A program made the position numbers and the translations under genes. This document shows positions 5,636 to 63,366 of a stretch of 64,000 bases of DNA, piece by piece. Source of the stretch: Escherichia coli (lineage in GTDB: Bacteria > Pseudomonadota > Gammaproteobacteria > Enterobacterales > Enterobacteriaceae). The stretch lies in NCBI RefSeq assembly GCF_030384885.1, contig NZ_CP128613.1; one strand, given 5' to 3'. Under the pieces are notes generated by a model that saw only the letters and a list, made by a program, of their open reading frames with translations, made no database searches and had not been told where the DNA came from. The number at the start of each line of letters is the position of its first letter. Positions within the stretch are counted from its first letter, which is position 1.

Positions 5636-5668
5636 TAAGAATCGGGGCTTTCGCCCCGAAGAAATGGA

Positions 5669-31142: not shown

Positions 31143-31736
31143 ATGGAAAAATACCTGCACCTGTTAAGTCGGGGAGATAAAATTGGCCTGACATTGATTC
31201 GTCTGAGTATTGCGATTGTTTTTATGTGGATTGGGTTATTAAAGTTTGTCCCTTACGAGGCAGACAGCATTACACCATTCGTCGCAAACAGTCCACTAAT
31301 GTCGTTCTTTTATGAACACCCGGAAGACTATAAACAGTATCTGACTCACGAAGGCGAATACAAACCAGAAGCAAGGGCATGGCAATCGGCCAATAATACC
31401 TATGGTTTTTCCAACGGTCTTGGCGTCGTGGAGGTGATTATTGCTCTGCTGGTTTTGGCTAATCCTGTCAATCGCTGGTTAGGTTTATTGGGAGGGCTGA
31501 TGGCATTTACCACACCGTTGGTAACACTCTCATTTTTAATCACCACCCCGGAGGCATGGGTACCCGCATTGGGTGACGCTCATCATGGTTTCCCTTATTT
31601 ATCCGGTGCTGGTCGCTTGGTATTGAAAGATACTCTGATGCTGGCAGGTGCTGCCATGATAATGGCAGATTCGGCGCGGGAAATTCTTAAACAACGCAGT
31701 AATGAATCCAGTTCAACGTTAAAAACTGAATATTGA
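31143..31736 (+). CDS. rclC: Inner-membrane protein (RclC-like)
   Basis: ~197-aa multi-TM protein immediately after rclB. Confidence 0.8.
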   Translation: MEKYLHLLSRGDKIGLTLIRLSIAIVFMWIGLLKFVPYEADSITPFVANSPLMSFFYEHPEDYKQYLTHEGEYKPEARAWQSANNTYGFSNGLGVVEVIIALLVLANPVNRWLGLLGGLMAFTTPLVTLSFLITTPEAWVPALGDAHHGFPYLSGAGRLVLKDTLMLAGAAMIMADSAREILKQRSNESSSTLKTEY

Positions 31737-31895: not shown

Positions 31896-32780
31896 TCAAT
31901 CATGTATTTTTACAGCAAGACAACCACGAACAAATTCAGGATTAAAATGTTTTACCGACTCCCCAACATAACCCAAATCAAGCGAACTAATTTGTGCCAT
32001 TTCTTTCTCTGTCAGTGAGAAATCCCAGATAGCAAAATTTTCTTCGATACGCTGTTGATGTGTCGATTTCGGAATAACGACCACTCCCCGTTGAATATTC
32101 CAACGCAGAATGACTTGAGAAATCGATTTTTGATGGGCATCTGCAATACTCTGAAGCAGATTATTTTCAAAGGGTTTATGTCTTCCACCGCCTAACGGAG
32201 CCCATGCTTCAGGCTTCACGTTATAATACTTCATGGTTGCCAGCGCCTCTGGTTGGGCAAAATAGGGATGCAACTCGACCTGGTTGACCATCGGTTTAAC
32301 TCTTGCCGTTTCACAAAAGTTCGCCAGAACATGAGGATAGAAATTGGAAACCCCAATTGCTTTTAATTTGCCCTCTTCATAGGCATCTTCGAGTGCACGC
32401 CACGCACTGAAATAATCGCGCATAGCCTGGTGCAATAAATAGAGGTCGAAGTATTCTAGTCCCGATTTTTTTAATGACGCTTCAATACCTGCTTTTGCCG
32501 TATCCTGATTCAACATATCCTGCACCCACAATTTAGACGTTATAAATAACTCATCTCGGGTACATAAACCTTCAGATATAGCTTCACGAACGGCTTCACC
32601 GACGGCATCTTCATTACCGTATACCGCTGCAGTGTCGATGAGTCGATAACCCGTGCGGATAGCGTTCAACACTGACTGTTTGCACACGTTTTTATCGGTA
32701 ACCTGAAAAACACCAAATCCCATCATCGGCATTTTCAGATTGTTACTTAATACGGAAAATTCCACTGTCAGTCCCTCCAT
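31896..32780 (-). CDS. Aldo-keto reductase family oxidoreductase
   Basis: AKR motifs (GYRLIDTA…YGNE; LxxxGxxYxDLYLLH; IPKS). True start may be the internal MPMMGFG (~32732). Confidence 0.8.
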   Translation of the reverse strand: MEGLTVEFSVLSNNLKMPMMGFGVFQVTDKNVCKQSVLNAIRTGYRLIDTAAVYGNEDAVGEAVREAISEGLCTRDELFITSKLWVQDMLNQDTAKAGIEASLKKSGLEYFDLYLLHQAMRDYFSAWRALEDAYEEGKLKAIGVSNFYPHVLANFCETARVKPMVNQVELHPYFAQPEALATMKYYNVKPEAWAPLGGGRHKPFENNLLQSIADAHQKSISQVILRWNIQRGVVVIPKSTHQQRIEENFAIWDFSLTEKEMAQISSLDLGYVGESVKHFNPEFVRGCLAVKIHD

Positions 32781-33013: not shown

Positions 33014-33871
33014 ATGATCAGGCAGAAGATTCTACAGCAGCTCCTGGAGTGGATTGAGTGCAATCTTGAGCACCCTATTTCAATCGAAGATATCGCACAG
33101 AAATCTGGCTACAGCAGACGCAACATCCAGCTTCTGTTCCGAAATTTCATGCATGTGCCTTTGGGAGAATACATTCGCAAACGAAGGCTTTGTCGTGCCG
33201 CCATTCTTGTCCGGCTCACCGCGAAATCTATGCTTGATATTGCACTCTCTTTGCATTTTGATTCACAGCAGTCATTCAGCCGCGAATTTAAAAAGTTATT
33301 CGGCTGCTCTCCCCGTGAATACCGCCACCGTGATTATTGGGATCTCGAAAATATCTTCCCTTCTTTTTTAATACGTCAACAGCAAAAGACGGAGTGTAGA
33401 TTAGTCAACTTTCCTGAGACACCTATTTTTGGCAATTCATTTAAATATGATATTGAAGTGTCGAATAAATCACCGGATGAAGAAGTCAAACTGCGACGTC
33501 ATCATTTAGCCAGATGTATGAAGAATTTTAAGACGGATATCTATTTCGTCTCCACGTTCGAACCGTCAACAAAATCGGTCGATTTGCTCACAGTTGAAAC
33601 TTTTGCCGGTACGGTATGCAAACAAACCGATTCAGAGATGTCGAAAGAGTGGACAATTAACCGAGGACTGTATGCCTCTTTCCGCTATGAAGGTGAGTGG
33701 GAGCACTACCCTGAATGGGCGCGAAACCTCTATCTGATGGAATTACCTGCCAGGGGGTTAGCCAGAGTGAACGGCAGTGATATTGAGCGATTTTATTACA
33801 ATGAAGATTTCGTAGAAAAGGATAGCAATGATGTTGTTTGCGAAATATTTATCCCTGTTCGTCCGGTTTAG
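33014..33871 (+). CDS. AraC/XylS-family regulator with N-terminal HTH and C-terminal effector domain (Rob-like); probable ykgA equivalent
   Basis: MarA/Rob-like double HTH at the N-terminus, followed by ~170 aa of extra domain. Confidence 0.75.
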   Translation: MIRQKILQQLLEWIECNLEHPISIEDIAQKSGYSRRNIQLLFRNFMHVPLGEYIRKRRLCRAAILVRLTAKSMLDIALSLHFDSQQSFSREFKKLFGCSPREYRHRDYWDLENIFPSFLIRQQQKTECRLVNFPETPIFGNSFKYDIEVSNKSPDEEVKLRRHHLARCMKNFKTDIYFVSTFEPSTKSVDLLTVETFAGTVCKQTDSEMSKEWTINRGLYASFRYEGEWEHYPEWARNLYLMELPARGLARVNGSDIERFYYNEDFVEKDSNDVVCEIFIPVRPV

Positions 33872-33991
33872 TTATCGCTATGTCTAAATGAATTTATAAC
33901 AAGACTACTGTCAGGCAATTCAATAAATAATGGCGTTGAAGATGTCAACGCCATTATTGTTTATTAGAATGTTACTTTCATACTCTTAATA

Positions 33992-36900
33992 TTATTTCAT
34001 CGCCTCCTCGCCCGTTGCCGTATTGGCATCCACCGCGGTAATGGTCACCGTCACTGGCTTCATTTCGTACCCGCCATAGGTCAGGGCGTTAAATGTGAAC
34101 GTATAGACACCAGGCTTGCTGGTACTAAATGTACGCGTGATTTTTCCGCTCACGAAATGGTCATTTTTCGACGGCAGGAACTGATAATCCTTCTCCGTCA
34201 CCCCTTCCGGCGTCTGAATGTCGACCCACATATTCCCGCCAACGGGGTTATTTGCCGACATCAGGGTCACCTCCAGCTTCGCAGTCGATTTCCCATCCGC
34301 CACCAGAGATTGCACATCAGATGATGCGGCGAGCACCGCGTTTTTATCATCCGCCACGAAACTGGATTCAGCCGTTTTCGTTGATACCTGACCGTTGTCC
34401 TGACTCACTTGCGCCGTAAGTGTATATTTCGCTGCAACAGTCGTGGTGGCGGTGAAAATAGCCTGCCCTTGCTCATTCGTTGTCGCTGTGCCATTCGGTT
34501 CCAGGTTTAACGAAGCCGGGCTGGCGGTCAGCGTCACTTCGCTATCTTTCAACAAATTGTTATTGGCATCAGTCACCGTAACTTTATACGTCTGTTTGGC
34601 TTTGCCATCCGCCACTGCACGGTTGCCAATCACCTCAATACTGGAGATGGTCGCCGTAGTCTTATCCGCCACAAACGTAATGCTCTTCGCGTCTGAAGGC
34701 TGGTTATTTCCTGCTGAAGCCGTGATCTCATACGTTCCGGCAGTCACTGAAACCACCTGCAACTCTGCTTTCCCCTCATCGTTGGCTTTCACCCAGACAT
34801 TATCGCCAGTAAGCGGTTTGACACCCCGGGGCAGATTAAATGTCACCAGAGTTCCTGGAACAGGGTTACCGTTTTTATCCTCAACGGTCGCCGTCAGCGT
34901 AAAGGCATCTTTGCCGTTTGCCACTTTTTGAGCGGCAGTGTCAACCTGCAGGTTTGCCTGACCGGTGCTGGCGTCTGCGTTGAATTTCACCGTGACCGTC
35001 TTCTGAGCATTATTCACTGAGGCCGTGATACTGTGTTCCCCAGCAACGGTTGCTATCAACTCAATGTCCGCTTTACCTGCCGCATTGGTTGTTACTGTAT
35101 TCCCCGTCTTGCTAGTCACACCCTGCGGTAAAGTCAGCGTAACTTCTTGCCCCTGCAACGGGTTACCATAGCTGTCCACGACGGTCAGGGTTACCTGGTT
35201 AGCAGACTGTCCATTTGCCAGTTGGTTATTCACCTTCACCGCCATATCACTGATCACTGCCCGGGAAGCGTCGCCTGCAACATTCAGCACCAATGGCTGA
35301 GCAACGGCATTTTGGCCGTTCACGCGTGGCATGACAGACAACTGACCTGCAGCCGATCCCAGCGTTAAGGTCGACACGTAGACCCCATTACCTTTCTCTG
35401 TCCAGTTTCCTGCTGAAGGACGCTCACTCCCCGTGCTGGCGGCACCGCTAAACACTGGTGCATCTGGCTTCAGCCCGGTGACCGGGTTCCCGTACGCATC
35501 CTTCACGGTGAAGGTGAGTTCCGTCGTCGTTTTAACCGTTGGAGTCTTATTGTCCGCAACAAGCGTAGAGTTCGCTGATGACATCTCCCCGGCGATGACC
35601 GTCAACTGCGCGGCTTCGGTGGCTGCTGGCTGGCCGTTGAAGAGCGGCATGACACGAAGCTCGCCCGTCTTTCCGCCTGTGGTCAACGTAGCAACATAGG
35701 AACCGTCACCTTTTTCGGTCCAACTGGAAATAGTCGCCCCTTCAGAGGCGGTCCCCGTCAAACTTGCCGACAACGAAAGACCACTGATAGCGTTGCCATG
35801 CGCATCTTTCGCCACCAGCGTCACGGTTGTGCTTTCGCCTGCTTTTACGCGATCTGCGGCTACAGACACTGTCGACTGGCCTGAAGATAACGCATCAGCC
35901 ACCACGGTTACTTTTGCCGCGTTTGCTGCCGCGTCCTGCCCATTGAGCTTCGGCATAACCTCTAATTCACCCGCCGTAGAGCCGAGAGTAATTTGCGCAG
36001 TCCACGTCCCATCACCATTATTTGTCCAGCCCGATGCCGTAGAACCTACAGCAGCGGCACCCGCTAATGACGGCGCTTCCGGCGTGAGGCTGGTCACAGG
36101 GTTGTCATAGGCATCTTTTGCCGTCCAGATTGCCGTAACTGTACCGCCAACCACCGGTTTATCAGGATTCAGTGTGATGGACGAATGTGCTGCATCAAGC
36201 GGCCCGGCAACAAACTTCAGCGTTTGTTGTAACGTGCCCAGCTGATACTGCTCGCTGAAGGCACGCACAACAACGTTTCCGGCACGGGTCGAAGAAACCG
36301 TGGCGCTGTAAACCCCTGGTTTTATTTCCGAAATGGCACCAACGGTTACACCATTAGTGTCTTGCGGAACAAGTCGCAGGCGGCTGGCTTCTCCCGTCAC
36401 CGGATTACCCTCGGAGTCCACCGCTGTCAGTGTCAGCGTGTAGGCTTGCTGACCATCAGCAACCACATCACCTGACGGCTCGTTAGCGCTCAGGGTGGAG
36501 TTTGCCACATCCATCATCGTGGCCCGCAGTTCTGCAGTGACAGTTTTGCTCATGTCATCAACGCTAACAGTAATCGTTACCTCACCTGACTGCGTTCCGG
36601 TAGTAAAGACAGACTGATACACCCCTGCTTCAGTTTCGGTGAACTCACCCAGTGTGGGTTTTGCCTGTGATTTAGTGGCCTTCAGGGTACGAGTCACAAT
36701 ATTTCCAGCCGGTTTGAAGGTTAGTTCAGTCTTGATCTGATCTTTCATGCCCGTGACTGGCTGGCCCTCGGCGTCGCGCAGAGACAGCACCAGCGGCTTT
36801 TGCTCATTACCGTTAGCAAGCATTTGAATACTGCTCTGACCGTCAAGCGTTAACGCCGTACGATCGGCGCTCATACCAGCTCCGCTAATAACCACTTCTG

Positions 36901-38245
36901 TCTGCACACGTTTCGAGGCATTGCCTTTGTTATCGTAGGCAACTGCTGAAATCGCATAATAATTGTCTTTGCCTGGACGGTAAGCCGGGAGCGTTACTTG
37001 CCACTGACTACCCTGACCGGTAATTTTGCCACCTTCAGCCAGTAATGACGGCGCTTCCCACTGCACATTTTTCAGTCCGTGAGTTGCTTTGCTGACCACA
37101 AGCCCCAGGGAAACCGTCTGACCGCCCTTGCCTTCAATACGCTCAGGCAGAGCAATACGGATCACTTCAGATTTGCGGTACTCAAGAACGATGTTGTTAT
37201 TACGCTCAACCAGGTCATAGCGGCTGCCTGCCAGCATTCGACGCTCGCGAATGCTGTCTGTATCGAGTTGTTTTTGCAGAGGTTCGCCAATTCGGTAGTT
37301 AACTTCCAGGCCAAAGCGAGTGTCATTCTCACCACTCTTGCCCTGCTTATGCCCGGCGCTCAGTGTCAGAAGAGGCACTGGTGTATAGGTTACCTCGGCA
37401 GAAATAGCATGCGGGTCTTTCTGGCGTTTATCTTTACCAAACAGCCCGACTTCATCGCCATAATACTGCTCATACATCAGGCTTGCGCCAAGCTGCGGCC
37501 AGGCAGGTAAATAGCCCTCAGCACGAATATCCCAGCCATTCGCCGGGCGTTCCTGATAATCCTCAACATCCGGTGATTTTTTCCAGCCAGAAGCCCGGAT
37601 ATAACCATTGGCGCTCAGTTTCAAATAATCACGCCAGTATTCCGCACCAACACCAATGCGGGTATGACTACGGGATAAATCATGATCGATAAAAGTATTC
37701 ACCCCCGCCATCCAGTCATTTCCTGAAAAATGACGCCAGCCAAAACCAATATTTGACTGAGTACGATCGTCGGTACGATGTATTGCCCCCTGAGTGAACA
37801 ACATATTTGTCGGCGTGTCATAAATCGGATAAAGCATTTCCAGCGAAGAGTCCTTCAGCGAGAAATTTTTATCGACATTCAGTTTGACGCGCGCAGTACC
37901 ATATTTCCCGAGCCACTCCTGTATTTCCTGGTTAGCTTTAGCTGTGGCCATTCCGGTAATAAAGTTACGTGTCGCATCGCTATCTGGCTGACTGCTTAAA
38001 AATGTCCCGGCATTTGCGGCAAACGATGCGACATTTTTCTCCACATTATTATCAGCAGCTACCGTGGTATTTTCCATGCTCAACCGTGGCTGAACCGCAT
38101 GCTGCGCGCGTGCTGCCATTACTGGGGTAAAGGTGACAGCGAGTGGGAAAAGAACCTGAACAGAGATATTTGCCCACGCCACGCAGCGGGCCAGAACTGA
38201 ATAACGAAATCGTGGTTGTTTATGACCTGTTTTATAACGTGACAT
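33992..38245 (-). CDS. eaeH: Intimin/invasin-family outer-membrane adhesin with tandem bacterial Ig-like (Big) domains (EaeH/FdeC-like)
   Basis: 1417-aa uninterrupted ORF; N-terminal beta-barrel-type region followed by about ten ~90-100-aa repeats with recurring (T/V)xxD-x-(Y/H)GNP(V/L) motifs. Confidence 0.9.
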   Translation of the reverse strand: MSRYKTGHKQPRFRYSVLARCVAWANISVQVLFPLAVTFTPVMAARAQHAVQPRLSMENTTVAADNNVEKNVASFAANAGTFLSSQPDSDATRNFITGMATAKANQEIQEWLGKYGTARVKLNVDKNFSLKDSSLEMLYPIYDTPTNMLFTQGAIHRTDDRTQSNIGFGWRHFSGNDWMAGVNTFIDHDLSRSHTRIGVGAEYWRDYLKLSANGYIRASGWKKSPDVEDYQERPANGWDIRAEGYLPAWPQLGASLMYEQYYGDEVGLFGKDKRQKDPHAISAEVTYTPVPLLTLSAGHKQGKSGENDTRFGLEVNYRIGEPLQKQLDTDSIRERRMLAGSRYDLVERNNNIVLEYRKSEVIRIALPERIEGKGGQTVSLGLVVSKATHGLKNVQWEAPSLLAEGGKITGQGSQWQVTLPAYRPGKDNYYAISAVAYDNKGNASKRVQTEVVISGAGMSADRTALTLDGQSSIQMLANGNEQKPLVLSLRDAEGQPVTGMKDQIKTELTFKPAGNIVTRTLKATKSQAKPTLGEFTETEAGVYQSVFTTGTQSGEVTITVSVDDMSKTVTAELRATMMDVANSTLSANEPSGDVVADGQQAYTLTLTAVDSEGNPVTGEASRLRLVPQDTNGVTVGAISEIKPGVYSATVSSTRAGNVVVRAFSEQYQLGTLQQTLKFVAGPLDAAHSSITLNPDKPVVGGTVTAIWTAKDAYDNPVTSLTPEAPSLAGAAAVGSTASGWTNNGDGTWTAQITLGSTAGELEVMPKLNGQDAAANAAKVTVVADALSSGQSTVSVAADRVKAGESTTVTLVAKDAHGNAISGLSLSASLTGTASEGATISSWTEKGDGSYVATLTTGGKTGELRVMPLFNGQPAATEAAQLTVIAGEMSSANSTLVADNKTPTVKTTTELTFTVKDAYGNPVTGLKPDAPVFSGAASTGSERPSAGNWTEKGNGVYVSTLTLGSAAGQLSVMPRVNGQNAVAQPLVLNVAGDASRAVISDMAVKVNNQLANGQSANQVTLTVVDSYGNPLQGQEVTLTLPQGVTSKTGNTVTTNAAGKADIELIATVAGEHSITASVNNAQKTVTVKFNADASTGQANLQVDTAAQKVANGKDAFTLTATVEDKNGNPVPGTLVTFNLPRGVKPLTGDNVWVKANDEGKAELQVVSVTAGTYEITASAGNNQPSDAKSITFVADKTTATISSIEVIGNRAVADGKAKQTYKVTVTDANNNLLKDSEVTLTASPASLNLEPNGTATTNEQGQAIFTATTTVAAKYTLTAQVSQDNGQVSTKTAESSFVADDKNAVLAASSDVQSLVADGKSTAKLEVTLMSANNPVGGNMWVDIQTPEGVTEKDYQFLPSKNDHFVSGKITRTFSTSKPGVYTFTFNALTYGGYEMKPVTVTITAVDANTATGEEAMK

Positions 38246-38795
38246 TGAGATAATTTCCTGATGAACGAATTAACGAACATAGGCAAACACAAATAATGGT
38301 GTCTGCTTGTCAGAAAAGCCGGGGATTTCCCGGTTTCCTTTTCCGCAGAAAAGGAAATACCTTTATGTAAGAAAGTACACCGCCACCTAATATATCCAGT
38401 GTCTGTAGCCACTCATCAGGTGGGTGGGCGCGGGATTATATTTTTATTTATGGGTAAAAATTTAGCTTTTTGTGCAAGTCATTAAATAGATACCTAAGTT
38501 ATATTTCTTACTCTGCGGACAGTGAATAATTCATTATTCAGAGTGAATAATAATGACCTGCTTTTAATTTACCACGATTGGAAATACGTCGAAGTAGGTA
38601 TATACGCCAGGATAAACCGATATATTTTTTTTGGATATTCATTTTCCTTCATCGGACTGTAAATTGCGGGGATATCGAACTTGCACGACTCATCGCAACA
38701 CTCAAACAGATTTATGAATTTCGTTCATAACCCCTGACAAATCCTGCCGTCTAATCGAGCTCTTCCCTTTACGTTATGCTTCTCATGAACGATAA

Positions 38796-39386
<591 letters not shown>

Positions 39387-39578
39387 GCGATTATGCATCT
39401 ACCTATTTACGTCGGTCACTCAGTCAGAGTCTTGCCCATATTCAATGAGGTTCAACACCGCAGCCAATGAAAAGTAGGCCATGCGGGGATTAATAGCATT
39501 ACTCATTAACCAATCGCTCTTTTCATTTACGTGCTCTTTATGTAACGTATTGCTTTTATTGATCTTCCTAGAGTTTGC

Positions 39579-39935
39579 ATGAATAAGAATCTCATCCTCG
39601 CATTTGCATTATTTTCCTTACCTGTATTTGCAGAAGAAGATCTGGGGCCAGGCAAATATGTTTGTGACATTAGGATTTCCAGCCTGGATACCGCTACTCA
39701 AATTCTGTCAAAATCCGCAACAGTTCTCGATAATGGAAACAATTTCATCGTTCAAATGCCAAATGGAGATCAATTGTACTCTCCAGATCTGGAAAATGTT
39801 GATGATGGTATAAAACAAAAAGCAACAATAGGTGGAGTGACATTTATTCGTCGTCCAACTTTTAACGATCGCTTCATCGTGGAAGATGGAAATACAGGAT
39901 TCTTCTATAAGATGCGAAACTGCGAGAAGAAATAA
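39579..39935 (+). CDS. Small secreted hypothetical protein
   Basis: 118-aa ORF with a signal peptide (MNKNLILAFALFSLPVFA) in an AT-rich context. Confidence 0.5.
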   Translation: MNKNLILAFALFSLPVFAEEDLGPGKYVCDIRISSLDTATQILSKSATVLDNGNNFIVQMPNGDQLYSPDLENVDDGIKQKATIGGVTFIRRPTFNDRFIVEDGNTGFFYKMRNCEKK

Positions 39936-40223
39936 AGGAAGTTTGATAGCGATATCCTCCTGATTTTCAGGCTTTGTACCTGTTCAAGACTTACAACTAC
40001 AAGCCGCTACGTGTTAACGCCTCCCAAAATAACCACCGTTAACCGTAGCGGCCATAGATACTATTATTTTAGCCACATTACTGGTGATAATGATAATTGA
40101 TATTATGGCCGTATAGAAAATAAGTATTAATTATCAGAAAGTTTATTATGTAAACGCGTCCTAATGATTACGTTATTCCTCTTACCGATATTCGCCCAGA
40201 GCAACCATCAATTACACACATCA

Positions 40224-41150
40224 TTAACTTTCTATTTTTACTCTTTTCTCCACCATAAAATCAATAAAAGCACGAACTTTAGAGGGCATTCTCACCCGTG
40301 ATGAAACATAAATATAAAATCCAGGAAATGAAACAGCCCAATCCTCAAGAATCGGCTGTAACTTGCCCGCATTGATATGTTCAGCGATTGCAAAATCCAG
40401 ATGTTGAATGATACCCGTTCCATTCAGCGCCATTCGTATCATGCTTTCGTCATCATTAGAAATATACTTACCTGAAACCTCTATTTCGAACTCTTCATTA
40501 CCCCCCACAACATTAGAAAACTCCCATGCAGAGAGTGCACCGCTACTTTTATGCCGCAACCGAAGGCAATTATGGTTACTCAGTTCCTGAGGCGTTTCAG
40601 GAATACCGTGTTCTTTTAAATAATCTGGCGATGCCACAGTAACCAGTTTAATAAGCGGAGAAACAGGAACGGCAGTCATATGCTCATCCAGTCCTTGCTC
40701 AAGACGTATGCCCACATCACAGCCGTCCGCAATAATGTTAGATAAACCGTCATCCATAATGAGTTCTATCTTTGTTTTGGGGTAACGAGTAAGAAACTCG
40801 CCAATATGAGGCTCAACAAGCATCCGTGCTGCAACACGGGAGGAATTTATTCTCAACAGGCCTGTAGGTTCAAGTTGGGTATCACCAACATCTTTCAAAG
40901 CATCATCAATTTGCCCCAAAGCCGACACCAGCACTTCATACAGACGCTGTCCTTCCTCAGTAAGCGACATATTGCGGGTCGTACGGTATATCAGCTTGGT
41001 GTTAAGACGTTCCTCAAGAGATTTTAAATTCTGGGACAATGCGGCCCGCGTAATACCCATTTCAGAAGCGGCTCTGGAAAAACTGCCGGCACGAACAATC
41101 AGCGCAAACCAGGCAAGAGAAGGCAAAATTGAAGGCTCTATTTTCATCAT
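40224..41150 (-). CDS. LysR-family transcriptional regulator
   Basis: LysR HTH from MMKIEPSIL…; the track ORF has an N-terminal extension; divergent from the hydrolase gene. Confidence 0.8.
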   Translation of the reverse strand: MMKIEPSILPSLAWFALIVRAGSFSRAASEMGITRAALSQNLKSLEERLNTKLIYRTTRNMSLTEEGQRLYEVLVSALGQIDDALKDVGDTQLEPTGLLRINSSRVAARMLVEPHIGEFLTRYPKTKIELIMDDGLSNIIADGCDVGIRLEQGLDEHMTAVPVSPLIKLVTVASPDYLKEHGIPETPQELSNHNCLRLRHKSSGALSAWEFSNVVGGNEEFEIEVSGKYISNDDESMIRMALNGTGIIQHLDFAIAEHINAGKLQPILEDWAVSFPGFYIYVSSRVRMPSKVRAFIDFMVEKRVKIES

Positions 41151-41306
41151 TGTAAACCTTAACTTAACACTGTGATAGATATTAGACCATTGATGATAAC
41201 CAATACAAGTCATACTATTACGCCGTTCTCGATATGAACACAAATGCCAGTTGCGGATAATAGAAATGATATTTAAATCTGTTTAGGCAAATCCCTGGAG
41301 CTTGAA

Positions 41307-42227
41307 ATGAAAACGGTTTCGATAAAACACACTTACTGGGATATAGCTGCTGATATCTATTTCCCTGACGATTTTAATAGTGAAAAAAAGTATCCTGCCA
41401 TTATCAGTGCCCATCCAATTGGAAGCTGCAAAGAACAGACATCGGGTAGTGTGTATGGTGCCGCCCTGGCAAAAGCTGGCTTTATCGTCATTGCTTTTGA
41501 TGCCAGTTTTCAGGGAAGCAGCGGTGGAGAACCGCGTTATCTGGAAGATCCAACAATGCGAGTAAAAGACTTCAGCATTGTCGTTGATTACCTTACCACC
41601 TTACCTTACGTTGATGCCGGGCGTATTGGTGTACTGGGTATTTGTGGTGGAGGTGGATATGCCATTAATGCCGCAATGACAGAACGTCGGATTAAAGCCA
41701 TTGGTACTGTCACGGGTGCAAACTACGGGCGTCTTATGCGTGAGGGATTTACAGCGTTTAATCCTATCGGAGCACTCGAAGCAATGGCGCAACAAAGAAC
41801 AGACGAAGCTAACGGCGCAAAACTTCGCGTAGATGATTTACTCCCCTCTTCTCCGGATGCAGCTCTTGAAGCGGGATTAACAGAAATAGACCTTTTTGAA
41901 GCAACAGAATATTATCGTTCGCCACGAGGCTGTGCGACTAATGGGGTAAATCGTTCGCTATTTTCACATCAGACTGTTGCCGTGGGCTGGGATGCTTTTC
42001 ATCTTGCAGAAGTCCTGTTAACTCAACCACTAATGGTTGTAGTGGGCGATAGAGTGGGCGCTTTTGGTGCCTATCGTGACGGCTGCGAAATTATTGGTCG
42101 TGCAGCCTCAAAACATAAAGAGTTGGTCGTGGTTGAAGGTTATTCACATTACGACCTGTATGATAAGCCAGAACCTGTGAAACAGGCGCTCGATAAATTA
42201 ATTCCTTTTTACAAAACACATTTGTAA
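41307..42227 (+). CDS. Alpha/beta-hydrolase-fold protein (dienelactone-hydrolase-like)
   Basis: 306 aa; a glycine-rich nucleophile-elbow-like region (VLGICGGGGYA) and acidic/His residues near the C-terminus. Confidence 0.7.
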   Translation: MKTVSIKHTYWDIAADIYFPDDFNSEKKYPAIISAHPIGSCKEQTSGSVYGAALAKAGFIVIAFDASFQGSSGGEPRYLEDPTMRVKDFSIVVDYLTTLPYVDAGRIGVLGICGGGGYAINAAMTERRIKAIGTVTGANYGRLMREGFTAFNPIGALEAMAQQRTDEANGAKLRVDDLLPSSPDAALEAGLTEIDLFEATEYYRSPRGCATNGVNRSLFSHQTVAVGWDAFHLAEVLLTQPLMVVVGDRVGAFGAYRDGCEIIGRAASKHKELVVVEGYSHYDLYDKPEPVKQALDKLIPFYKTHL

Positions 42228-42399
42228 TAACCTTGCAGGGAGATTCATTATCTCCCTGAGATTTATCCTTTATTGACTACACAACAATAATGAAATTACT
42301 CAAAAAGAATTCTATTAAAGGAAAAAAGCATCAAAAAGTAGCAACTCAACTTATTAAGATTATACGCATTAAAATCAGATAAACATTTGAGGTATTGTT

Positions 42400-43542
42400 A
42401 TGACAAATAAACACCCATCATTGTTTTCTCCTTTTATGCTGACAGAAAAAATAAAGCTACGTAATCGTATCGTTATGGCCCCTATGACGACCTGGTCAGC
42501 GAATCCTGATGGAACCATCTCTGAGCAAGAACTCGAATTTTATAAACGCCGCTCACAAAATGTTGGTTTAGTAATAACAGGATGTACCTATGTCACGCCA
42601 AGCGGCATTGGGTTTACTCATGAATTTGCCGCATATGACGACCGTTTCATTAACAGCCTTGAAAAGTTAGCAGCGGCAGCCCAAAGTGGGGGTGCTCCGG
42701 CTATTTTGCAGATTTTCCACGCCGGTAATAAAGCCATCCCGGAGCTTGTACCAAATAACGATGTTATTAGTGCCAGCGCATCAAGCGTAAAATCTGGTGA
42801 CTTTATGAAGAGAGTGGTACAAAGCAGGGAAATGACTGAAAACGAAATTCAGGAAACCATTAGAGCATTCGGAGATGTCACAAAAAGGGCGATTAAAGCA
42901 GGTTTTGATGGCATTGAACTTCATGGTGCGCACGGATTCCTTCTACAGAATTTCTTCTCCCCTCTATTTAACCAGCGTAATGACCGATGGGGAGGAGATC
43001 TCGAAGGACGTATGCGCTTCCCGCTGGCCGTATTACAGGAAGTAAAAAATGTAGTCTATGAATATGCGACAAAGCCCTTTGCCATCGGTTACAGAATATC
43101 TCCTGAAGAATCTGCAACAGGGGGGCTGCGGATAGAGGATACTTATAAACTCCTTGATCGGCTCATTTCATCCGGTATTTCGTATATACATACCTCGCTG
43201 GTCAGTATTAACGATAGCTACCCTGTTGAGTCGCCAAATGGCCCCCGAACTATTGAATTGATTTTAAATCATATTGCAGGCAGAGTGCCGGTAATCGCTG
43301 CAGGTAAAATACGCACACCGTCTCAGGCTCAAGAAGCAATTTCCACTGGCCTGCCACTTGTTGCGATCGGTAAAGGGCTGGTGATAAATCCAGAATGGGT
43401 GACTTTAGCTGAATCAGGTAGAGGCCATGAAATTCAAACAACCCTTAATCCACAACTTGTTCCTGAATTAACCATTCCGGATAAACTATGGGATCAAATT
43501 CAGACATCGAAAGGAACTGGCTGGTTTCCGTTAATGGATTAA
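42400..43542 (+). CDS. NADH:flavin oxidoreductase (Old Yellow Enzyme family)
   Basis: 380 aa; the OYE-typical N-terminus (…LRNRIVMAPMTT…) and ELHGAHGFLLQNF active-site region. Confidence 0.8.
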   Translation: MTNKHPSLFSPFMLTEKIKLRNRIVMAPMTTWSANPDGTISEQELEFYKRRSQNVGLVITGCTYVTPSGIGFTHEFAAYDDRFINSLEKLAAAAQSGGAPAILQIFHAGNKAIPELVPNNDVISASASSVKSGDFMKRVVQSREMTENEIQETIRAFGDVTKRAIKAGFDGIELHGAHGFLLQNFFSPLFNQRNDRWGGDLEGRMRFPLAVLQEVKNVVYEYATKPFAIGYRISPEESATGGLRIEDTYKLLDRLISSGISYIHTSLVSINDSYPVESPNGPRTIELILNHIAGRVPVIAAGKIRTPSQAQEAISTGLPLVAIGKGLVINPEWVTLAESGRGHEIQTTLNPQLVPELTIPDKLWDQIQTSKGTGWFPLMD

Positions 43543-44884: not shown

Positions 44885-44938
44885 TTCATAATTCGCCGGA
44901 TTAACGATATTTGTCTGATTAATAATCAGACCGGATTA

Positions 44939-44972
44939 ATGTTGGTGTATTGATTACACCAACATTAATTTT
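44939..44972 (+). terminator. Rho-independent terminator of rpmE2-rpmJ2
   Basis: 11-bp perfect stem ATGTTGGTGTA / TACACCAACAT with a 5-nt loop, followed by TAATTTT. Confidence 0.7.
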
Positions 44973-45206
44973 CCTGGAAATATATTCTTTAAGTTCATTT
45001 AAAGCCAACTGCCTGACGTTTCTCTCTGAATATTCCATTATATTCATGTTGATTTATTGACCAACTTCTCCCCTGTATGCTGGTATCAACTCTCTTTTAG
45101 ACTGAACAAGCCACTCCGCCCCCTCCCTTTGCGGAGCAGCCTGCATTTACACTCAAACTGTTAAGATGATAAATGTGGTAAATCTGTTGGTACTAACATA
45201 AAACGT

Positions 45207-54865: not shown

Positions 54866-54912
54866 TGGTGCCGATAATAGGAGTCGAACCTACGACCTTC
54901 GCATTACGAATT
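54866..54912 (-). tRNA. Pseudo-tRNA: 3' ~47 nt of a tRNA-Thr (thrW-like) = att core of an integrated element
   Basis: The minus strand reads …ATTCGTAATGCGAAGGTCGTAGGTTCGACTCCTATTATCGGCACCA (anticodon arm with CGU, T-arm GGTTCGACTCC, acceptor 3' strand + CCA); the 5' half (GCCGATA…) is absent, so this is a fragment. Confidence 0.75.
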
Positions 54913-55282
54913 ATAAGAATCCGTTTCTAATTCAAAGCATTACCACATCAACACTGCGCTCACACGTCCCACCACATCAAAACATGTAAAGCCTTGCAAG
55001 CCATTGTGAGGCCTTATGTGTCTCAGTTTTGTCCCACCTTGTATTACGACTTGCATAACCAATGAAGATAAACGTGACGACAAACGACGCAGCAGTCTTC
55101 TTTTCTTTCACACTTTCCCCACTCAGCATGCATACCTTCTACTATAACTGTAGTGAATGTCTGTTATGAGCGAGGAGCGGACTATCTTTCTGTGCTAAGC
55201 ACAGAAGTTTAAATTAATAAATAGAGATTAAGATGTTTATTGGTTACATTGATATTTATAATTTGATTGCCTTGAAATTCCT

Positions 55283-55322
55283 AAGCCGAATTCATGACGT
55301 CTTCATCACATGAATTCGGCTT
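55283..55322. terminator. Perfect 14-bp-stem hairpin (AAGCCGAATTCATG … CATGAATTCGGCTT) 3' of the 447-aa cargo gene
   Basis: Exact reverse-complement arms around a 12-nt loop, ~30 bp beyond the gene's stop. Confidence 0.55.
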
Positions 55323-55351
55323 ATGCATAATACTAAGTTGGTTTTATTAAG

Positions 55352-56695
55352 TCATTTCTTTGCCGCGCTTTTATTGCACTTCTTACAGCCTTCAATCAAT
55401 TTTTCAGTTATTATATAATAATAAGGAATGTAAATGTTTAACCCGCAAGTTTTAATCGAATCGAAAGCAAGAACTTTCACAATGGATTCTTCTCCATCTT
55501 TCTCCATTAGCAATATATCACTTAAAGGCAAATCATTAGGATTGTAAATCCTCACATCGCCAGGCTGTCTTTCATAGGCTTCGATGTCATCACCTGGTTG
55601 GCCATAGGCTAAATGAGTGGCTTTAATCCAGTTTATTGGTTCAGCATTTTGACACCAGGAGATTATTTTTTCTAATTTTTCAGGTGTGTAAGCTTTTACA
55701 TAATCTCCATGTTTTTCACATCTACCTAGTTCTGAAAAATGGCCCAGGGTGTATTCATAAGAATAATCACCAGCAGTCAATGGTAGTCTAAAGTATTGCT
55801 GAGGCAATGCCTTCTGGACTTTGGTTTTACTCAGCAAATTAAAGGTGATATCATAAAGTTGATATAGACAAACACCCTCTCGATCTGGATATCCATAAGG
55901 CTTGATGTCAGAAAGCATCTCAATATCAGAATTATAAACACTTGCATAATCATCACTTCCAAACATGAAAAAACCTTTTGATAGAATGAATATTGCATTA
56001 GGAAGAACGTTTTTTTCAAAATTCTGCGAGTGAGTTTTTATTTCTTGTACTATGTCCATCCAATCCATATCAGTATCATAGGCGAAGATAATTCCAAAAC
56101 CATTAGTCTGAATTCTCTCCTCTGAATGTATAAATATGTTCTGATTTATACCATGTTTCTTTAGTTTTTTGAATGAGCGGATATTTTCGAAAGCACTTTT
56201 CAGTTCTTTTTTTGTTAGTTTTGACTTAACCTGAATCACACCATAGCAGTACTCCACAGGTAAAACCTCAAAAATTTCCTGTCGCTGCATAAGCGAAAAT
56301 GAATTAAAAGCATCATAAAAAAGAATGTCGATTTCATTACTGAGATGTCCTGAGGTTGACGCTACACGGACACTTGATTTTGAGATGGCATAGCTTTGCG
56401 GTAAGAGTTTATTTTCATTGAAAAAGCATCTTAAGAGTTCCTCTCTGACAGTACCAACATCTCTTGGATGCTTAATATCTTTCGATATTTCAAAATCTTG
56501 AAGCATTTTCCTCTGTAAGTGAATGAACTCCCTTTCAAGACCATAAAATTCTTTATCTTTAGATCTCAGTTTGCTTGCACGAGAAACTTGATCGGATATC
56601 CATTCCTTTGTGCGAGACTCTCTCTCAGCAAAATCATCACGTTGTTTTTTTACAGCACCGGTCAAGCGTTTTCTTGTGTTTTCATTATCGGACAT
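55352..56695 (-). CDS. Hypothetical 447-aa protein of unknown function (AT-rich cargo gene; possible PD-(D/E)xK-like nuclease motif)
   Basis: Long uninterrupted ORF in visibly AT-rich DNA, K/E-rich N-terminus, a segment (…EIDILFYDAF…EYCYGVIQVKSK…) reminiscent of a restriction-endonuclease-like fold; stands alone between a terminator and the repeat/invertase region. Confidence 0.7.
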   Translation of the reverse strand: MSDNENTRKRLTGAVKKQRDDFAERESRTKEWISDQVSRASKLRSKDKEFYGLEREFIHLQRKMLQDFEISKDIKHPRDVGTVREELLRCFFNENKLLPQSYAISKSSVRVASTSGHLSNEIDILFYDAFNSFSLMQRQEIFEVLPVEYCYGVIQVKSKLTKKELKSAFENIRSFKKLKKHGINQNIFIHSEERIQTNGFGIIFAYDTDMDWMDIVQEIKTHSQNFEKNVLPNAIFILSKGFFMFGSDDYASVYNSDIEMLSDIKPYGYPDREGVCLYQLYDITFNLLSKTKVQKALPQQYFRLPLTAGDYSYEYTLGHFSELGRCEKHGDYVKAYTPEKLEKIISWCQNAEPINWIKATHLAYGQPGDDIEAYERQPGDVRIYNPNDLPLSDILLMEKDGEESIVKVLAFDSIKTCGLNIYIPYYYIITEKLIEGCKKCNKSAAKK

Positions 56696-57095
56696 AAATT
56701 AACCTTAAGTTGATAAGTTTTGTGGTGAATTTATAAAGCCTGAGGGATAAACATTTATAGTCTATAAGTTACTATTTATTTGAGATAGTAAGCCAATTTT
56801 ATTAGATGAAGAAACGTTCATAACCTCCTCAACTACGTTTCAATCGGCAACATCGGAGAAGTACACTTTGACAATATATAGCATATTGAAGCAGCTGTAA
56901 CTTAGAGCGCGTACACTCAAGATTTCCCGCTGCGGTGATGGCGGACGACTGCGTTTGATAACTCATTTCCCTCACCAACTATCGGACCTGTTCCTGATTG
57001 ATTATCACATTATAATGTGAGCAATGTCCGCTCCTAGCACATAGCAGTTCTAGAGACAATGGCGTAAAGTCATGGAGAATCGGTGGGAGGATATT

Positions 57096-57227
57096 CAGTT
57101 TCATTCATGCCGAAATACGGTAAAATCTATAACAGATAGAAATCATTCAATATTCGCACTATCAGAAGCTGGCCAGCCAACCGCGCACGATTTTGCATAC
57201 GACATGCTACGGTTTCATTTATCTCCG
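57096..57227 (+). repeat. Copy B of the ~130-bp imperfect direct repeat
   Basis: See copy A (52924..53053). Confidence 0.5.
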
Positions 57228-57814
57228 ACCGGAAACTTCTTATACAGTGTCGATACACCAACATCATAGATGATCTCCACCTTCTGGCGAGGAACGCCTG
57301 ATGCAATTAATCGCCCGGCCTGCGCCCTTTGTTCTGGTGTAAGTTTGGGACGACGTCCACCAATTCGTCCCTGTGCGCGAGCAACTTCCAGTCCAGCTTT
57401 TGTTCGTTCAACAATCAGTTCTCGTTCCATTTCAGCCAGGGCACCCATCACATGAAAGAAAAAACGCCCCATCGGTGTGCTGGTATCAATAGCATCCGTC
57501 AGGCTGCGAAAATTAACGCCACGTTCGCGCAACTCCTCAACCAGAATGACCAGATGGACAAGCGTGCCGGGACCGGGTTTATTCAGCGCTTCAATCAGGC
57601 GATCGCGCTGGTCAAAGCAGTCATCTCCCACCACATAAGCTGTGATGGACGGGCGGAAAGTGACTTTTCCCAGATCTTCGGTATAGGGCTTGTCGCGGTT
57701 CGGGTATTCATGTGTTTCCACACGGCGACCGGTTCCCGCACTTTCTTCTTCAACCTTAAACGGCACACCTCGAAATGACGCATCCTGAAGCCTGTCTTTC
57801 CACGTCATATACAC
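57215..57814 (-). pseudogene. Pin/Hin/Gin-family serine invertase C-terminal fragment fused to an unrelated N-terminus
   Basis: The C-terminal ~115 aa (…ELRERGVNFRSLTDAIDTSTPMGRFFFHVMGALAEMERELIVERT…RRPKLTPEQ…STLYKK) match the invertase core and HTH; the N-terminal ~85 aa show no resolvase catalytic-Ser region. Confidence 0.6.
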
Positions 57815-57821
57815 TCCGAAA

Positions 57822-57850
57822 ATAAAAAAGCCACCTATTAGAAGGTGGCC
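57822..57850 (-). terminator. Rho-independent terminator of the lipoprotein-like gene
   Basis: Stem GCCACCT / AGGTGGC followed on the minus strand by a T-tract (TTTTTATTTT). Confidence 0.6.
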
Positions 57851-57869
57851 TTGTAATGAATTTTATTAA

Positions 57870-58400
57870 TTAGCGAGTCAGAAACAACGAATCTTTATAC
57901 TTTTGCTGTTGTTCATTTAAATACTTAGCTGTTTCATCGCTGGCAAATGGAAATATTACCGTATTTTTAGGCATGGTAATTTCTTTTTTGTCCAGCGTCA
58001 GAGTAAACATAGGAACATACTGAGCAGAGTAACGCACCGCAGAAACGAGCTCTAGTTTAGACTCTTCAATAACACTTAAATTATCCAGGCTAACTTTCTC
58101 TTCATCTTTTTTCTTTGACGCATTTAAAGTTTTTATTACTTTATTTAATTTCTCCTGAAAATCCTCCTTAAAGTTTTCAGGATTGCCGTCGACAACAAGA
58201 ATCTGTTCACCCTGATTATCTGGAAAAATAATCTTTGCACTTATCAATTTATTTTCTTTATAAACATCACCAAGTTTTATGGCTCCTCCAGATAACTGAA
58301 TAATATGTTCATCTTTAAAGGAGATGTTGCCAGAGATTATGAGAGATGAAAAAATAGCCGCTGCTCCAAGAATTACACTTGCTGTGATATAGCCTTTCAT
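57870..58400 (-). CDS. Hypothetical signal-peptide/lipoprotein-like protein (AT-rich cargo)
   Basis: 176-aa ORF with an N-terminal hydrophobic segment (MKGYITASVILGAAAIFSSLIISG), Lys/Glu-rich, in visibly AT-rich DNA, with its own terminator. Confidence 0.6.
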   Translation of the reverse strand: MKGYITASVILGAAAIFSSLIISGNISFKDEHIIQLSGGAIKLGDVYKENKLISAKIIFPDNQGEQILVVDGNPENFKEDFQEKLNKVIKTLNASKKKDEEKVSLDNLSVIEESKLELVSAVRYSAQYVPMFTLTLDKKEITMPKNTVIFPFASDETAKYLNEQQQKYKDSLFLTR

Positions 58401-58491
58401 TTTTCGCCTATTAACATTTTTCTAAATGTGCATTAATTCTATCACTCTATTTATGACTTACAACCAGCAATACATGTGAGGGGAATCCTGG

Positions 58492-59623
58492 CTACCAAAA
58501 TCGGGTATAGCCAACATCGTGATTTATATCAATGCCACTGGAGCGTGTTTCCGTAACCCGCATACCTGGTGGCATATTTATAAATGATACCTTGATCTCA
58601 CCATCAACTTTTGGCGCGGTAGCTTTATTAATCATGAAGGGATTCGGGCCTGTGGCATCGGAGGCGTTGTTTGCCTGAGCCGGATCCACCGCCGGATAAG
58701 GAGTGTATCCCCGTGCCGGTATTCCCGTCTTCGATATTGTTGAAGGTGGCGCGATCGGTGTTCTGCACCATGTGCAACGGCACCCGGAACAGACGACAGA
58801 TTTCTTCAAGCTGAAACTTGCGGGTTTCCAGGAACTGGCTGTCCTCGGCGTTCAGCGCCATCGACTTCCAGTCCAGCCCCATCTCAAGGATCATCGGGCG
58901 GTGAGCATTACCAAGCCCGGTGTGACGCTCCTCAAAATCTTTCTTCAGGCGCTCATAAGCCTGATCCGACAGCGTCTGTTCTGTACGCAACACACCCGAC
59001 GTCACCGCGCCATTGCTGAACAGTCTGGCCCCGTGCTCTTCGGTCGCAGCTGCCAGCGATATTGCCTCACGGGCATAGGCGATGGGATTCAGTCCCACCA
59101 GACCGTCCAGCGTCAGCGTGCGCACATGCCAGATATCCTCCTGGCTCAGTACATCCGTGGAGCCATCCGGGAATGTGACCTGATAGACCGGCTCCCAGCT
59201 ACTGTTAAGCTTCGGTACCACACAGCCGGGATCGACGGGCAGCAGTTCAGCCACTTCGCCAAATGCTTTCACTTTGTAGGCGTAAAAGTTTCCCCGCAGG
59301 CACAGACAGGTGACCACCAGCTCCCAGAACTCCTGCGGCGTCATATAGCCATTGGGATGCGTGGAGATCAGCTTATGCAGACGTTCGCCAGTGGCTCTCT
59401 GCTTCAGGCTGCCGTTCAGGTGATACAGGTTGCAGGGCAACATCCCGACCGACTCCGCCAGCACCCTGACACAGGAAAAAACCGCCGTCAGTCGCATGGC
59501 CCGCTGGCTGCTGATCTGCTTTCCGGTATAGGTGTCGTAGGACAACCCGATGGCATCCGCCAGCTCTGCTGGCGTGGTCACCGGTGCGTCACTTTTTCGT
59601 TGAAATAATCCCGAAAAGAACAC
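58492..59623 (-). pseudogene. Phage portal protein (HK97 family), frameshifted and truncated
   Basis: ORF 58628..59623 (331 aa) is portal-like until ~58720, where it runs into a low-complexity tail; the continuation lies in another frame (58492..58809). Confidence 0.7.
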
Positions 59624-59805
59624 TATTTACCTCCGCCGACAGACAGCTGTGTACGATCGAGATATCGCGCCACCAGCCACGACCAGAACAGGCACAGCGC
59701 CCCGGCAACAACAAAACCCGCCGGGGGATAAATCAGCCAGGCACCATATGCCAGCAAAAGCGCACCCAGCACGCCCACCAGAGGCGCGAGAATCAGCATG
59801 ATCAT
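59623..59805 (-). CDS. Small hydrophobic protein between portal and terminase
   Basis: 60-aa ORF with two predicted TM helices; stop overlaps the portal start. Confidence 0.4.
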
Positions 59806-59816
59806 AATTACCTCAG

Positions 59817-61550: not shown

Positions 61551-62050
61551 GATTCGATGATTTTCAGAAACGGGTTAGTGGCTTTCTTCTGCCCCGCCAG
61601 GCCAATCAGACGCTGGCGGCTGCTGGGGTCGAGTCCGAGCATTGCCCCCGTACTGCTCATCTCGGACTCCTGTTCTTTTTTGGCGGTCAGCTCCGGATTT
61701 TTGACCATACCGCCCATTGCACCGGTGATGGTGTTGCCCTGTCTGGCAATATTTTTCACGGCACGTCGCCAGAACTCGTAGGCCACGCACCACCGCTCAA
61801 GCACCGCGAGGTCAGTCACGCACAGCAGGCCCTGACCGCAGAGTTCTTTAGTTGTCAGTTGCCACATGATCGTGGCGAGAGGGAGATCTTCTTCAGCGAA
61901 CCACTCCGGTGGCTCAACACCTTTGATGGGCGTAAAAACAGGTTCATCTTTATTCAGGGCTCGCTTGCCGGGGTTTCCGGCCAGCGCCTTGCGCGCCGTT
62001 GGCTTGGGGCGACGCCCGGAACGCCCCGCCGTTCCAGCCATATGCGGCAC
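61547..62050 (-). CDS. Phage terminase small subunit (P27/HK97-type)
   Basis: 167 aa, basic N-terminus, immediately upstream of the large subunit. Confidence 0.8.
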
Positions 62051-62166
62051 TCCTGGTTAAATTTCATTTTTCGCGGGTATAAAAAAACGATGGGGCGGGC
62101 AGTCCGGAAGACGTCAGGTCACAGGGATTTGACCCGCCCCTCCCCTCTGGCAGTGGGAACTGGTTC

Positions 62167-63335: not shown

Positions 63336-63366
63336 TTGCATGAGTTGCCCATCGATATGGGCAGCT

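Follow-up and report, generated by a model that had tools for sequence, protein, structure and literature searches.

An intact chromosomal fdeC (eaeH) in Escherichia coli: an inverse autotransporter adhesin with ten diverged Ig-like domains

The adhesin FdeC, or EaeH, is broadly conserved in E. coli and is a vaccine candidate. Its known forms include ECOK1_0290 of strain IHE3034, EaeH of ETEC H10407 and the crystallized fragment PDB 4E9L. Binding to collagens and epithelial cells was shown for fragment AB of the IHE3034 protein, and the display of FdeC is reported to require contact with host cells (PMC3324786). In CFT073, both the insertion of FdeC into the outer membrane and the display of its passenger on the surface depend on BAM/TAM (PMC4943183). 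The intact fdeC described below is a real feature and already known, and the findings on it are published (Nesta 2012; Heinz 2016; Aleksandrowicz 2024).

The window analysed here is a 64,000-nucleotide stretch of E. coli DNA. Its minus strand carries at 33992..38245 a single uninterrupted reading frame of 1417 codons plus stop, with a GGAA Shine-Dalgarno-like motif ahead of the ATG. A sequence-only reading had described an uninterrupted 1417-aa frame, giving no strand for it, and named it eaeH/fdeC; both statements hold. The minus-strand translation contains no internal stop, and the plus-strand frame contains many. The frame matches the fdeC annotated in E. coli 2013C-4282 (NZ_CP027579.1) at 100% identity, and RefSeq names this sequence 'fdeC: inverse autotransporter adhesin FdeC' (WP_000092573.1), with no pseudogene flag. 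Orthologs of FdeC have been defined by more than 90-91% amino-acid identity to the characterized protein (PMC3324786); the window protein shares 92.4% with FdeC of UTI89 and 95.3% with that of O157. The position of the gene is constant as well, in a reductase/regulator cluster between the rcl genes and ykgR/ykgMO-ecp and beside an AraC-type HTH gene, with the same neighbours in all six genomes compared (2013C-4282, F200, O157, UTI89, MB51 and EC42405). At the DNA level, the window and 2013C-4282 are 99.98% identical over positions 1-54911, an identity that is lost from thrW on.

Altogether, we estimate a probability of about 0.93 that the frame is an intact chromosomal fdeC (eaeH), coding for a type Ve (inverse autotransporter) adhesin with ten fixed Ig-like domains. 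The gene is laid out as follows:

33992..38245, minus strand: fdeC (eaeH) coding sequence, ATG start at 38245, TAA stop at 33992-33994
38021..38245, minus strand: N-terminal region, residues 1-75, basic at its start, followed by a hydrophobic segment resembling a signal sequence and by a short periplasmic linker
37175..38020, minus strand: inverse-autotransporter β-barrel translocation domain, residues 76-357, from Pfam IAT_beta and barrel structures
36863..37174, minus strand: first Ig-like unit, U1, residues 358-461, adjacent to the barrel and of the intimin D00 type
35255..36862, minus strand: U2-U6, residues 462-997, from HMM units and PDB 4E9L
33995..35254, minus strand: distal Ig-like units U7-U10, residues 998-1417, the hypervariable tip

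The two halves of the protein are those of the type Ve family: an IAT_beta barrel lies N-terminal of the passenger, and the C-terminal passenger is made of Ig-superfamily (Big) domains. Pfam PF11924 (IAT_beta) covers residues 76-350 with E = 6.9e-109 and 364 bits (the cut-off is 22.3) and is matched over positions 3-279 of 279. A search of PDB sequences aligns residues 113-357 with the invasin/intimin barrel structures 4E1T and 4E1S. No LysM domain is found among the Pfam matches. Judging by its sequence, the hydrophobic segment within residues 1-75 would act as a cleaved signal peptide. After it come a 12-stranded outer-membrane barrel (76-357) and then the passenger, which would leave the cell through or beside the barrel; by analogy with CFT073, surface display of the window allele probably depends on BAM/TAM too.

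Ten units make up the passenger. Pfam finds in it nine Invasin_D3 and five Big_1 stretches, and an iterated HMM delimits nine units of about 100 residues each within residues 462-1413. The scores of this HMM are circular from round 2, as its members train the model; independent evidence comes from rounds 0-1 and from Pfam. The intimin structure 6TQD is matched by residues 358-466 (E = 9.7e-13), and since this intimin-like unit adds to the nine from the HMM, the total is ten. A self-BLASTP of FdeC for internal protein repeats returned only the self-match.

Residues 595-1008 match PDB 4E9L (E = 5e-245), the crystal structure of three FdeC domains that correspond here to U4-U6 (PMC3324786). We modelled residues 998-1417 with AlphaFold2: the prediction is all-β, with a pLDDT of 93.3 and a strand pattern that we read as four sandwiches, and its best fold match in the PDB is invasin 1CWV. 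The last unit, U10, is all-β in this model apart from one three-residue helical turn. In agreement with the literature, no C-type lectin domain appears at the tip, neither among the Pfam matches nor in the U10 model. The count of about ten Big-domain repeats given by the sequence-only reading is thus confirmed by Pfam, by the HMM and by the 6TQD match; three of the domains are solved by crystallography (4E9L), and four more are covered by the present model (pLDDT 93). The ten β-sandwiches (358-1417) would form a rigid rod that projects from the surface and mediates adhesion, a function assigned to the window protein by analogy, from the literature on other FdeC alleles.

The gene is not intact in K-12. 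There, the remnant consists of codons 1-292, abutted by IS3, and 79% of fdeC is lost. The stretch concerned is:

33675..37369, no strand assigned: stretch missing in K-12, 3,695 bp, with about 1.25 kb of IS3 in its place

Codons 293-1417 of fdeC fall within it, together with the likely terminator between the genes and the 3' part of the HTH gene. The sequence-only reading had the K-12 copy disrupted by an insertion sequence, which is true but understated: the K-12 gene is an IS3-associated pseudogene with a 3,695-bp deletion, and its breakpoints confirm the disruption by IS3. In K-12 the gene was thus lost through an IS3-associated deletion of 3.7 kb. Intact fdeC is routine and K-12 the exception: 4,585 of 5,426 complete E. 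coli genomes (about 85%) hold at least 80% of the coding sequence in one place.

Variation between strains is concentrated at the tip. Among alleles, the barrel is 98.6-98.9% identical in amino acids, against 72-95% for U7-U10. In 2,869 of 4,708 genomes the DNA of the distal 1.26 kb shows only 80-90% identity, whereas nearly all genomes keep 95-99% in the flanks of fdeC. Against EC42405, the closest relative, the allele is a mosaic of blocks at 100% identity interspersed with others at 92-95%. Among complete genomes, only one reaches at least 99% identity to the window fdeC; 2013C-4282 aside, the next-closest allele is 98.3% identical in DNA. We considered whether the window allele is unique and rejected this, given that next-best match; nor is the allele rare, because the exact protein occurs on 590 contigs of public assemblies. 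What differs between strains is the allele: alleles have diverged and exchange short homologous tracts, mostly in the four outermost domains.

Could immunity drive this distal diversity, the exposed antigen being under diversifying (balancing) selection that yields antigenic variation at the population level? From barrel to tip, over six alleles, dN rises tenfold and dN/dS fourfold, from 0.07 to 0.29; divergence grows with distance from the membrane, the blocks are mosaic, and hundreds of protein variants are reported, some of which differ in adhesion (PMC11143625). However, in the same six alleles dN/dS is 0.22-0.36 per distal unit. Diversifying selection is not demonstrated, because the ratio stays below 1 in every region of fdeC. 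Moreover, dS too is two to three times higher in the distal units than in the barrel: old imported allele lineages could explain this excess equally well, as could relaxed constraint. We regard immune-driven selection as somewhat unlikely. Under a bolder scheme, which we consider doubtful, frequency-dependent selection by immunity or receptors would maintain the four outer domains as a set of ancient allele cassettes that recombine, and the tightly linked AraC/GyrI gene might be the dedicated regulator of fdeC. If it were true, FdeC 'types' would resemble intimin subtypes or serotypes in their behaviour.

The flanks of fdeC contain:

38246..38810, minus strand: upstream intergenic region, 565 bp, 34-38% G+C against 50-59% in the gene
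33926..33958, no strand assigned: perfect palindrome with a 14-bp stem and A/T-rich tails on both sides, between the convergent stops of fdeC and the HTH gene
33014..33871, plus strand: AraC-type HTH/GyrI-like regulator gene, the convergent neighbour, at the position of K-12 ykgA

The AraC/GyrI-like gene is intact here and truncated at its 3' end in K-12. From the consensus scan, the palindrome is likely a bidirectional intrinsic terminator. The upstream region is presumed to hold the promoter and to be the site of silencing; a consensus scan for a sigma-70 promoter upstream of fdeC gave no match above chance. The length and low G+C content of this region and the lack of a promoter match would also suit a cryptic gene, silent in this strain under nucleoid-associated silencing, whose integrity says little about phenotype. 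Display restricted to host-cell contact fits this as well, as does regulation by H-NS, named in the title of Easton 2014, and by temperature, for which the same work is cited (both through PMC4943183 and PMC11143625). Against it stand the strong purifying selection on the barrel (dN/dS 0.07) and the retention of the full-length gene in about 85% of complete genomes: both argue for use of the gene under some conditions. We judge a cryptic gene unlikely, and this reading is compatible with an intact adhesin gene rather than exclusive of it. Presumably, fdeC is expressed in this strain.

All ten domains go back to ancient duplications. Protein identity between units is 23-50%, plus three values of 52-60% from short local alignments that involve U10; on the same alignment columns, nucleotide identity is about 36-51%. 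The longest exact word common to any two units is 16 nt. Tandem Repeats Finder reports in fdeC only one trifling repeat of 21 nt, and a search for direct DNA repeats of unit length found none, the longest family being of 29 nt at 66-72% identity. RecA-dependent exchange in E. coli needs roughly 20-30 nt of perfect homology. Lengths are constant, too: full-length fdeC matches span 4,254-4,259 nt in a sample from 5,426 complete E. coli genomes (60 rows taken at even steps along the ranking of 5,083 matching records), the alleles compared here code for 1416-1418 aa, and the largest FdeC protein clusters, with 17,949, 3,112 and 3,064 members, are all of 1417 or 1418 aa. Unit number is fixed at ten in E. 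coli because the domains are too diverged to recombine with one another.

Variants in unit number exist but are rare: a 12-unit form and sporadic in-frame deletions. The 12-unit FdeC-like variant (P0084, 1630 aa; P0116, Escherichia sp. KTE114) shares the barrel and has all ten units in unchanged order, and differs by two additional diverged units (+213 aa) placed exactly between U5 and U6. Megablast of its insert against the 5,426 complete E. coli genomes gave no match. It shares with the window fdeC a convergent AraC/GyrI-type neighbour gene, while its context differs, with sulfatase and radical SAM genes upstream and hipBA downstream; the pairing of the two genes thus persists in another genomic context.

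The sequence-only reading had the array prone to recombinational expansion and contraction. A contingency locus of this kind, changing its unit number by unequal homologous recombination and thereby its adhesive and antigenic properties, finds some support in the wider family, whose passengers measure between 740 and 7,647 aa and have as many as 29 matched stretches (also PMC4943183), in the gain of the 12-unit form exactly at a unit boundary, and in a few deletions that remove one unit in frame, in register between neighbours (P0098, P0095, P0106). For E. coli fdeC the model is nonetheless largely refuted and highly improbable: the gene lacks tandem DNA units that are nearly identical and could misalign, exact words of at most 16 nt at about 40-50% nucleotide identity fall short of what RecA-dependent exchange requires, no unit-number polymorphism is seen among the sampled matches and large protein clusters, the deletion variants listed sit in one- or two-member clusters, mostly singletons, against clusters of thousands, and the two units added in the 12-unit form are diverged rather than recent duplicates. 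The companion claim, that the array underlies adhesion and antigenic variation, survives in part: such variation is plausible, and its source is distal allelic divergence and mosaic exchange, not repeat number. Ig-like domains that follow one another in a protein need not be encoded by an unstable DNA repeat; those of fdeC have diverged and are constant in number, and what varies is the allele sequence of the tip. As FdeC is a conserved adhesin and vaccine candidate, an intact copy and the type of its distal domains therefore affect antigen coverage.

Among known systems, the giant Big-domain inverse autotransporters and adhesins carry homologous Big_1/Invasin_D3 units, with identities of 28-40%. 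They reach 7,647 aa and as many as 29 matched stretches; the number of units clearly varies across lineages, unlike that of E. coli fdeC. Intimin (Eae) and Yersinia invasin share with FdeC the N-terminal IAT_beta barrel and the Ig-like rod. Contrary to them, FdeC has ten Ig units, no LysM match and no C-type lectin-like tip domain, and its ligands are collagens instead of Tir or integrin (PMC3324786). Its NCBIfam scores are 385 bits for intimin_all and 312 for the Inv N-terminal model, below the equivalog cut-offs of 1,400 and 710. No FdeC-specific NCBIfam model scores above its cut-off, and the IatC, Ilp, intimin, SinH and YchO models all remain below theirs. The window protein is closest to the known FdeC/EaeH, with the same locus, a length of 1416-1418 aa, ten Big domains and no lectin tip; it differs from the alleles of UTI89, O157, F200 and MB51, to which it is 92-96% identical in amino acids, only as one allele differs from another.

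The gene fdeC (eaeH), encoding an inverse autotransporter adhesin, is a single open reading frame with an ATG start in the ORF listing (33992..38245, minus strand, 1417 aa). As the sequence-only reading had claimed, the frame is uninterrupted: minus-strand translation shows no break and one terminal stop, and the same interval read on the plus strand is full of stops. A GGAA motif lies 9 nt upstream of the ATG. In a megablast search of 5,426 complete E. coli genomes, window 33500-38800 matched at 100% the genome of E. coli 2013C-4282 (NZ_CP027579.1), annotated at the same coordinates as 'fdeC: inverse autotransporter adhesin FdeC' (WP_000092573.1) with no pseudogene flag. The allele is not rare, since the exact protein was found on 590 contigs. 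fdeC is a real, correctly located and intact gene of a well-characterised family.

The surroundings of the gene comprise the following features.

33014-33871, plus strand: AraC/GyrI-type HTH gene, convergent with fdeC
33926-33958: palindrome with a perfect 14-bp stem and A/T tails on both sides, between the stops of fdeC and the HTH gene
38797-43450: aldo/keto reductase fragment, hypothetical gene, LysR regulator, alpha/beta hydrolase and NADH-dependent flavin oxidoreductase

The palindrome is plausibly a bidirectional terminator. Upstream of fdeC lies a 565-bp AT-rich gap (34-38% G+C vs 50-59% within the gene), in which a promoter scan found no match above chance; both observations would fit the H-NS and temperature control of FdeC that is cited in passages of PMC4943183 and PMC11143625.

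The K-12 copy, said earlier to be disrupted by an insertion sequence, was examined in an alignment of the window with the MG1655 locus. An IS3 is indeed present, but the lesion is bigger than an insertion: K-12 retains window 37370-38796 at 96.6% identity (fdeC codons 1-292 and the upstream region), whereas window 33675-37369 (3,695 bp) is missing, with ~1.25 kb annotated as IS3 transposase in its place. The neighbouring AraC-type gene of K-12 lacks its 3' end, and 32165-32749 and 38797-43450 are also missing. The latter (4.65 kb) is absent from strains F200 and MB51 as well; in O157 and UTI89 this reductase/regulator cluster, which is variable, takes other forms.

Over window 1-54911, identity to 2013C-4282 is 99.98%, with 9 mismatches. 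Similarity ends within the thrW tRNA-Thr gene (region 54866-64000), past which 2013C-4282 runs into proA-proB-phoE and the window has lambdoid prophage genes from ~58,700, for lysis, HNH endonuclease, terminase and portal; its source strain is thus near-identical to 2013C-4282, with a prophage at thrW. rclC (31143-31736) is open over 197 codons, with two residue differences from K-12 RclC. Since the 2013C-4282 record flags it 'internal stop' (pseudogene), a mismatch between the two must fall in this gene. Codon 31 of ykgL (44919-45146, minus strand) is an internal stop, which the related record annotates too. Between yahK and yahJ, 2219-7316 holds a four-gene sugar/AI-2-type ABC transporter and an ASCH-domain gene, a block presumably not in K-12.

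The FdeC protein is organised as follows, its Ig-like units being numbered from the barrel outwards.

Residues 76-350: IAT_beta (PF11924; Pfam, E = 7e-109)
Passenger: nine stretches of Invasin_D3 and five of Big_1 (Pfam)
Residues 358-461: U1, D00-like
Residues 462-575: U2 (iterated HMM, as for all units below)
Residues 580-680: U3
Residues 685-783: U4
Residues 788-885: U5 (HMM seed)
Residues 890-991: U6
Residues 998-1090: U7
Residues 1094-1193: U8
Residues 1200-1298: U9
Residues 1302-1413: U10

The unit HMM, seeded with residues 788-885 and iterated, converges on nine units, eight of them at E < 1e-6 by round 1, later rounds being partly circular. With the D00-like unit, which matches intimin structure 6TQD by sequence (residues 358-466), we count ten units, in agreement with the earlier estimate of about ten Big repeats and with the published '10 Big domains' (PMC4943183). 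Also by sequence, the barrel structures 4E1T (invasin) and 4E1S (intimin) match residues 113-357, and the FdeC fragment 4E9L matches residues 595-1008 (E = 5e-245); U4-U6 coincide with its three crystal-structure Ig-like domains, residues 678-991 (PMC3324786). FdeC scores far under every cut-off of the NCBIfam intimin, invasin, SinH, IatC and YchO models, and so falls outside these subfamilies.

The distal part without a solved structure, residues 998-1417 (U7-U10), was modelled with AlphaFold2 from an alignment of 30 sequences. The model is all-beta (mean pLDDT 93.3), with disorder confined to the last seven residues, and its strand pattern can be read as four consecutive sandwiches. Its best PDB match in Foldseek is invasin 1CWV (E = 6e-16); InvD 5LDY is matched too. 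From the four sandwiches and the fold match, the units behave as independent Ig-like domains, as the sequence-only reading had supposed. A Pfam search found neither LysM nor a lectin domain in FdeC, and a C-type lectin tip is absent, in line with the conclusion of Nesta et al. (PMC3324786).

The array had also been regarded as prone to recombinational expansion and contraction, and this did not hold. Tandem Repeats Finder reports in fdeC only a 21-nt trifle of 11-nt period; among direct repeats, the best family is 29 nt long, with copies 66-72% identical. Between pairs of units, amino-acid identity is 23-50% (three pairs, all with U10, reach 52-60% in short local alignments) and nucleotide identity over the same codon columns ~36-51%. 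The longest exact word common to any two units is 16 nt, usually 8-10 nt. Because RecA-mediated exchange in E. coli requires a perfectly homologous stretch of some 20-30 nt, the units would not be expected to undergo unequal crossing-over with one another.

Repeat number was compared among strains. The fdeC coding sequence is matched in 5,078 of the 5,426 genomes, with at least 80% of it in one place in 4,585. Sixty records were sampled in even steps over the full ranking, and every full-length match among them spans 4,254-4,259 nt. Five fetched alleles (1416-1418 aa) differ in length only by indels of 1-2 residues, and the large clusters of a 5.8-billion-protein collection are of 1418 aa (17,949 members) and 1417 aa (3,112 and 3,064).

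Unit number does differ in rare cases. One protein form, of 1630 aa (234 members), is longer by 213 residues, which make up two further diverged units placed exactly at the U5/U6 boundary; megablast found no match to this insert in the 5,426 complete genomes. In-frame deletion forms occur in one- or two-member clusters. Three are in register, P0098 (U3+44 to U4+42), P0095 (U1+15 to U2+17) and P0106 (U1+96 to U2+100), and further ones are out of register, one destroying the barrel. The three, each a single-member cluster, lose about one unit and join neighbouring Ig units into chimeric domains; either genuine deletions at microhomologies or errors of assembly may explain them. In the wider family unit number is highly variable and protein length reaches 7,647 aa; this variation lies between lineages over long times and is not instability at fdeC.

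The gene of the 1630-aa form, a 12-unit fdeC variant (Logan ERR976626, L010 3001-8891, compared with window 33014-38245), adjoins the same convergent AraC/GyrI-type HTH gene in another neighbourhood, flanked by sulfatase and radical SAM genes and, at the other end, by hipBA. The pairing kept despite different neighbours hints at a functional linkage.

Variation lies instead in allele sequence. Relative to the F200, O157, UTI89 and MB51 alleles, amino-acid identity is 98.6-98.9% in the barrel, 85-92% in U7, 73-94% in U8, 82-91% in U9 and 78-95% in U10. The distal 1.26 kb has only 80-90% DNA identity in 2,869 of 4,708 genomes, and the 4.2-kb flanks on both sides stay at 95-99% in nearly all. From barrel to U7-U10, mean dN goes from 0.008 to 0.083 and dN/dS from 0.07 to 0.29, and dS rises too (0.12 to 0.29). 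On these rates the gradient appears to show old or imported allele lineages together with weaker constraint; positive selection is not proven. Against EC42405, the closest relative by flanks (99.2% on both sides), 300-nt blocks of fdeC at 100% identity alternate with blocks at 92-95%. U2-U3 have ~99% DNA identity to UTI89, and U4 91.6% to UTI89 vs 97.7% to F200. That the nearest allele differs between units is the mark of short-tract exchange between alleles.

Family knowledge and the anatomy found here suggest how FdeC would work. The N-terminal signal would direct Sec export, the barrel would be inserted with BAM/TAM help (PMC4943183), and the C-terminal passenger would then be exported, its ten Ig-like domains folding into a rod. 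As three crystallised domains span 126 Å (PMC3324786), we extrapolate by proportion a length on the order of 40 nm. The rod would adhere to collagens and epithelial cells, an activity located in fragment AB, which extends to residue 1008 (PMC3324786), and the four distal domains, which are the most variable, would be the most exposed. All elements flagged by the sequence-only reading are already in the literature, and FdeC allelic diversity, with conservation-coloured models of 'FdeC subtypes', has been published as well (PMC11143625; PMC4943183 Fig. 5).
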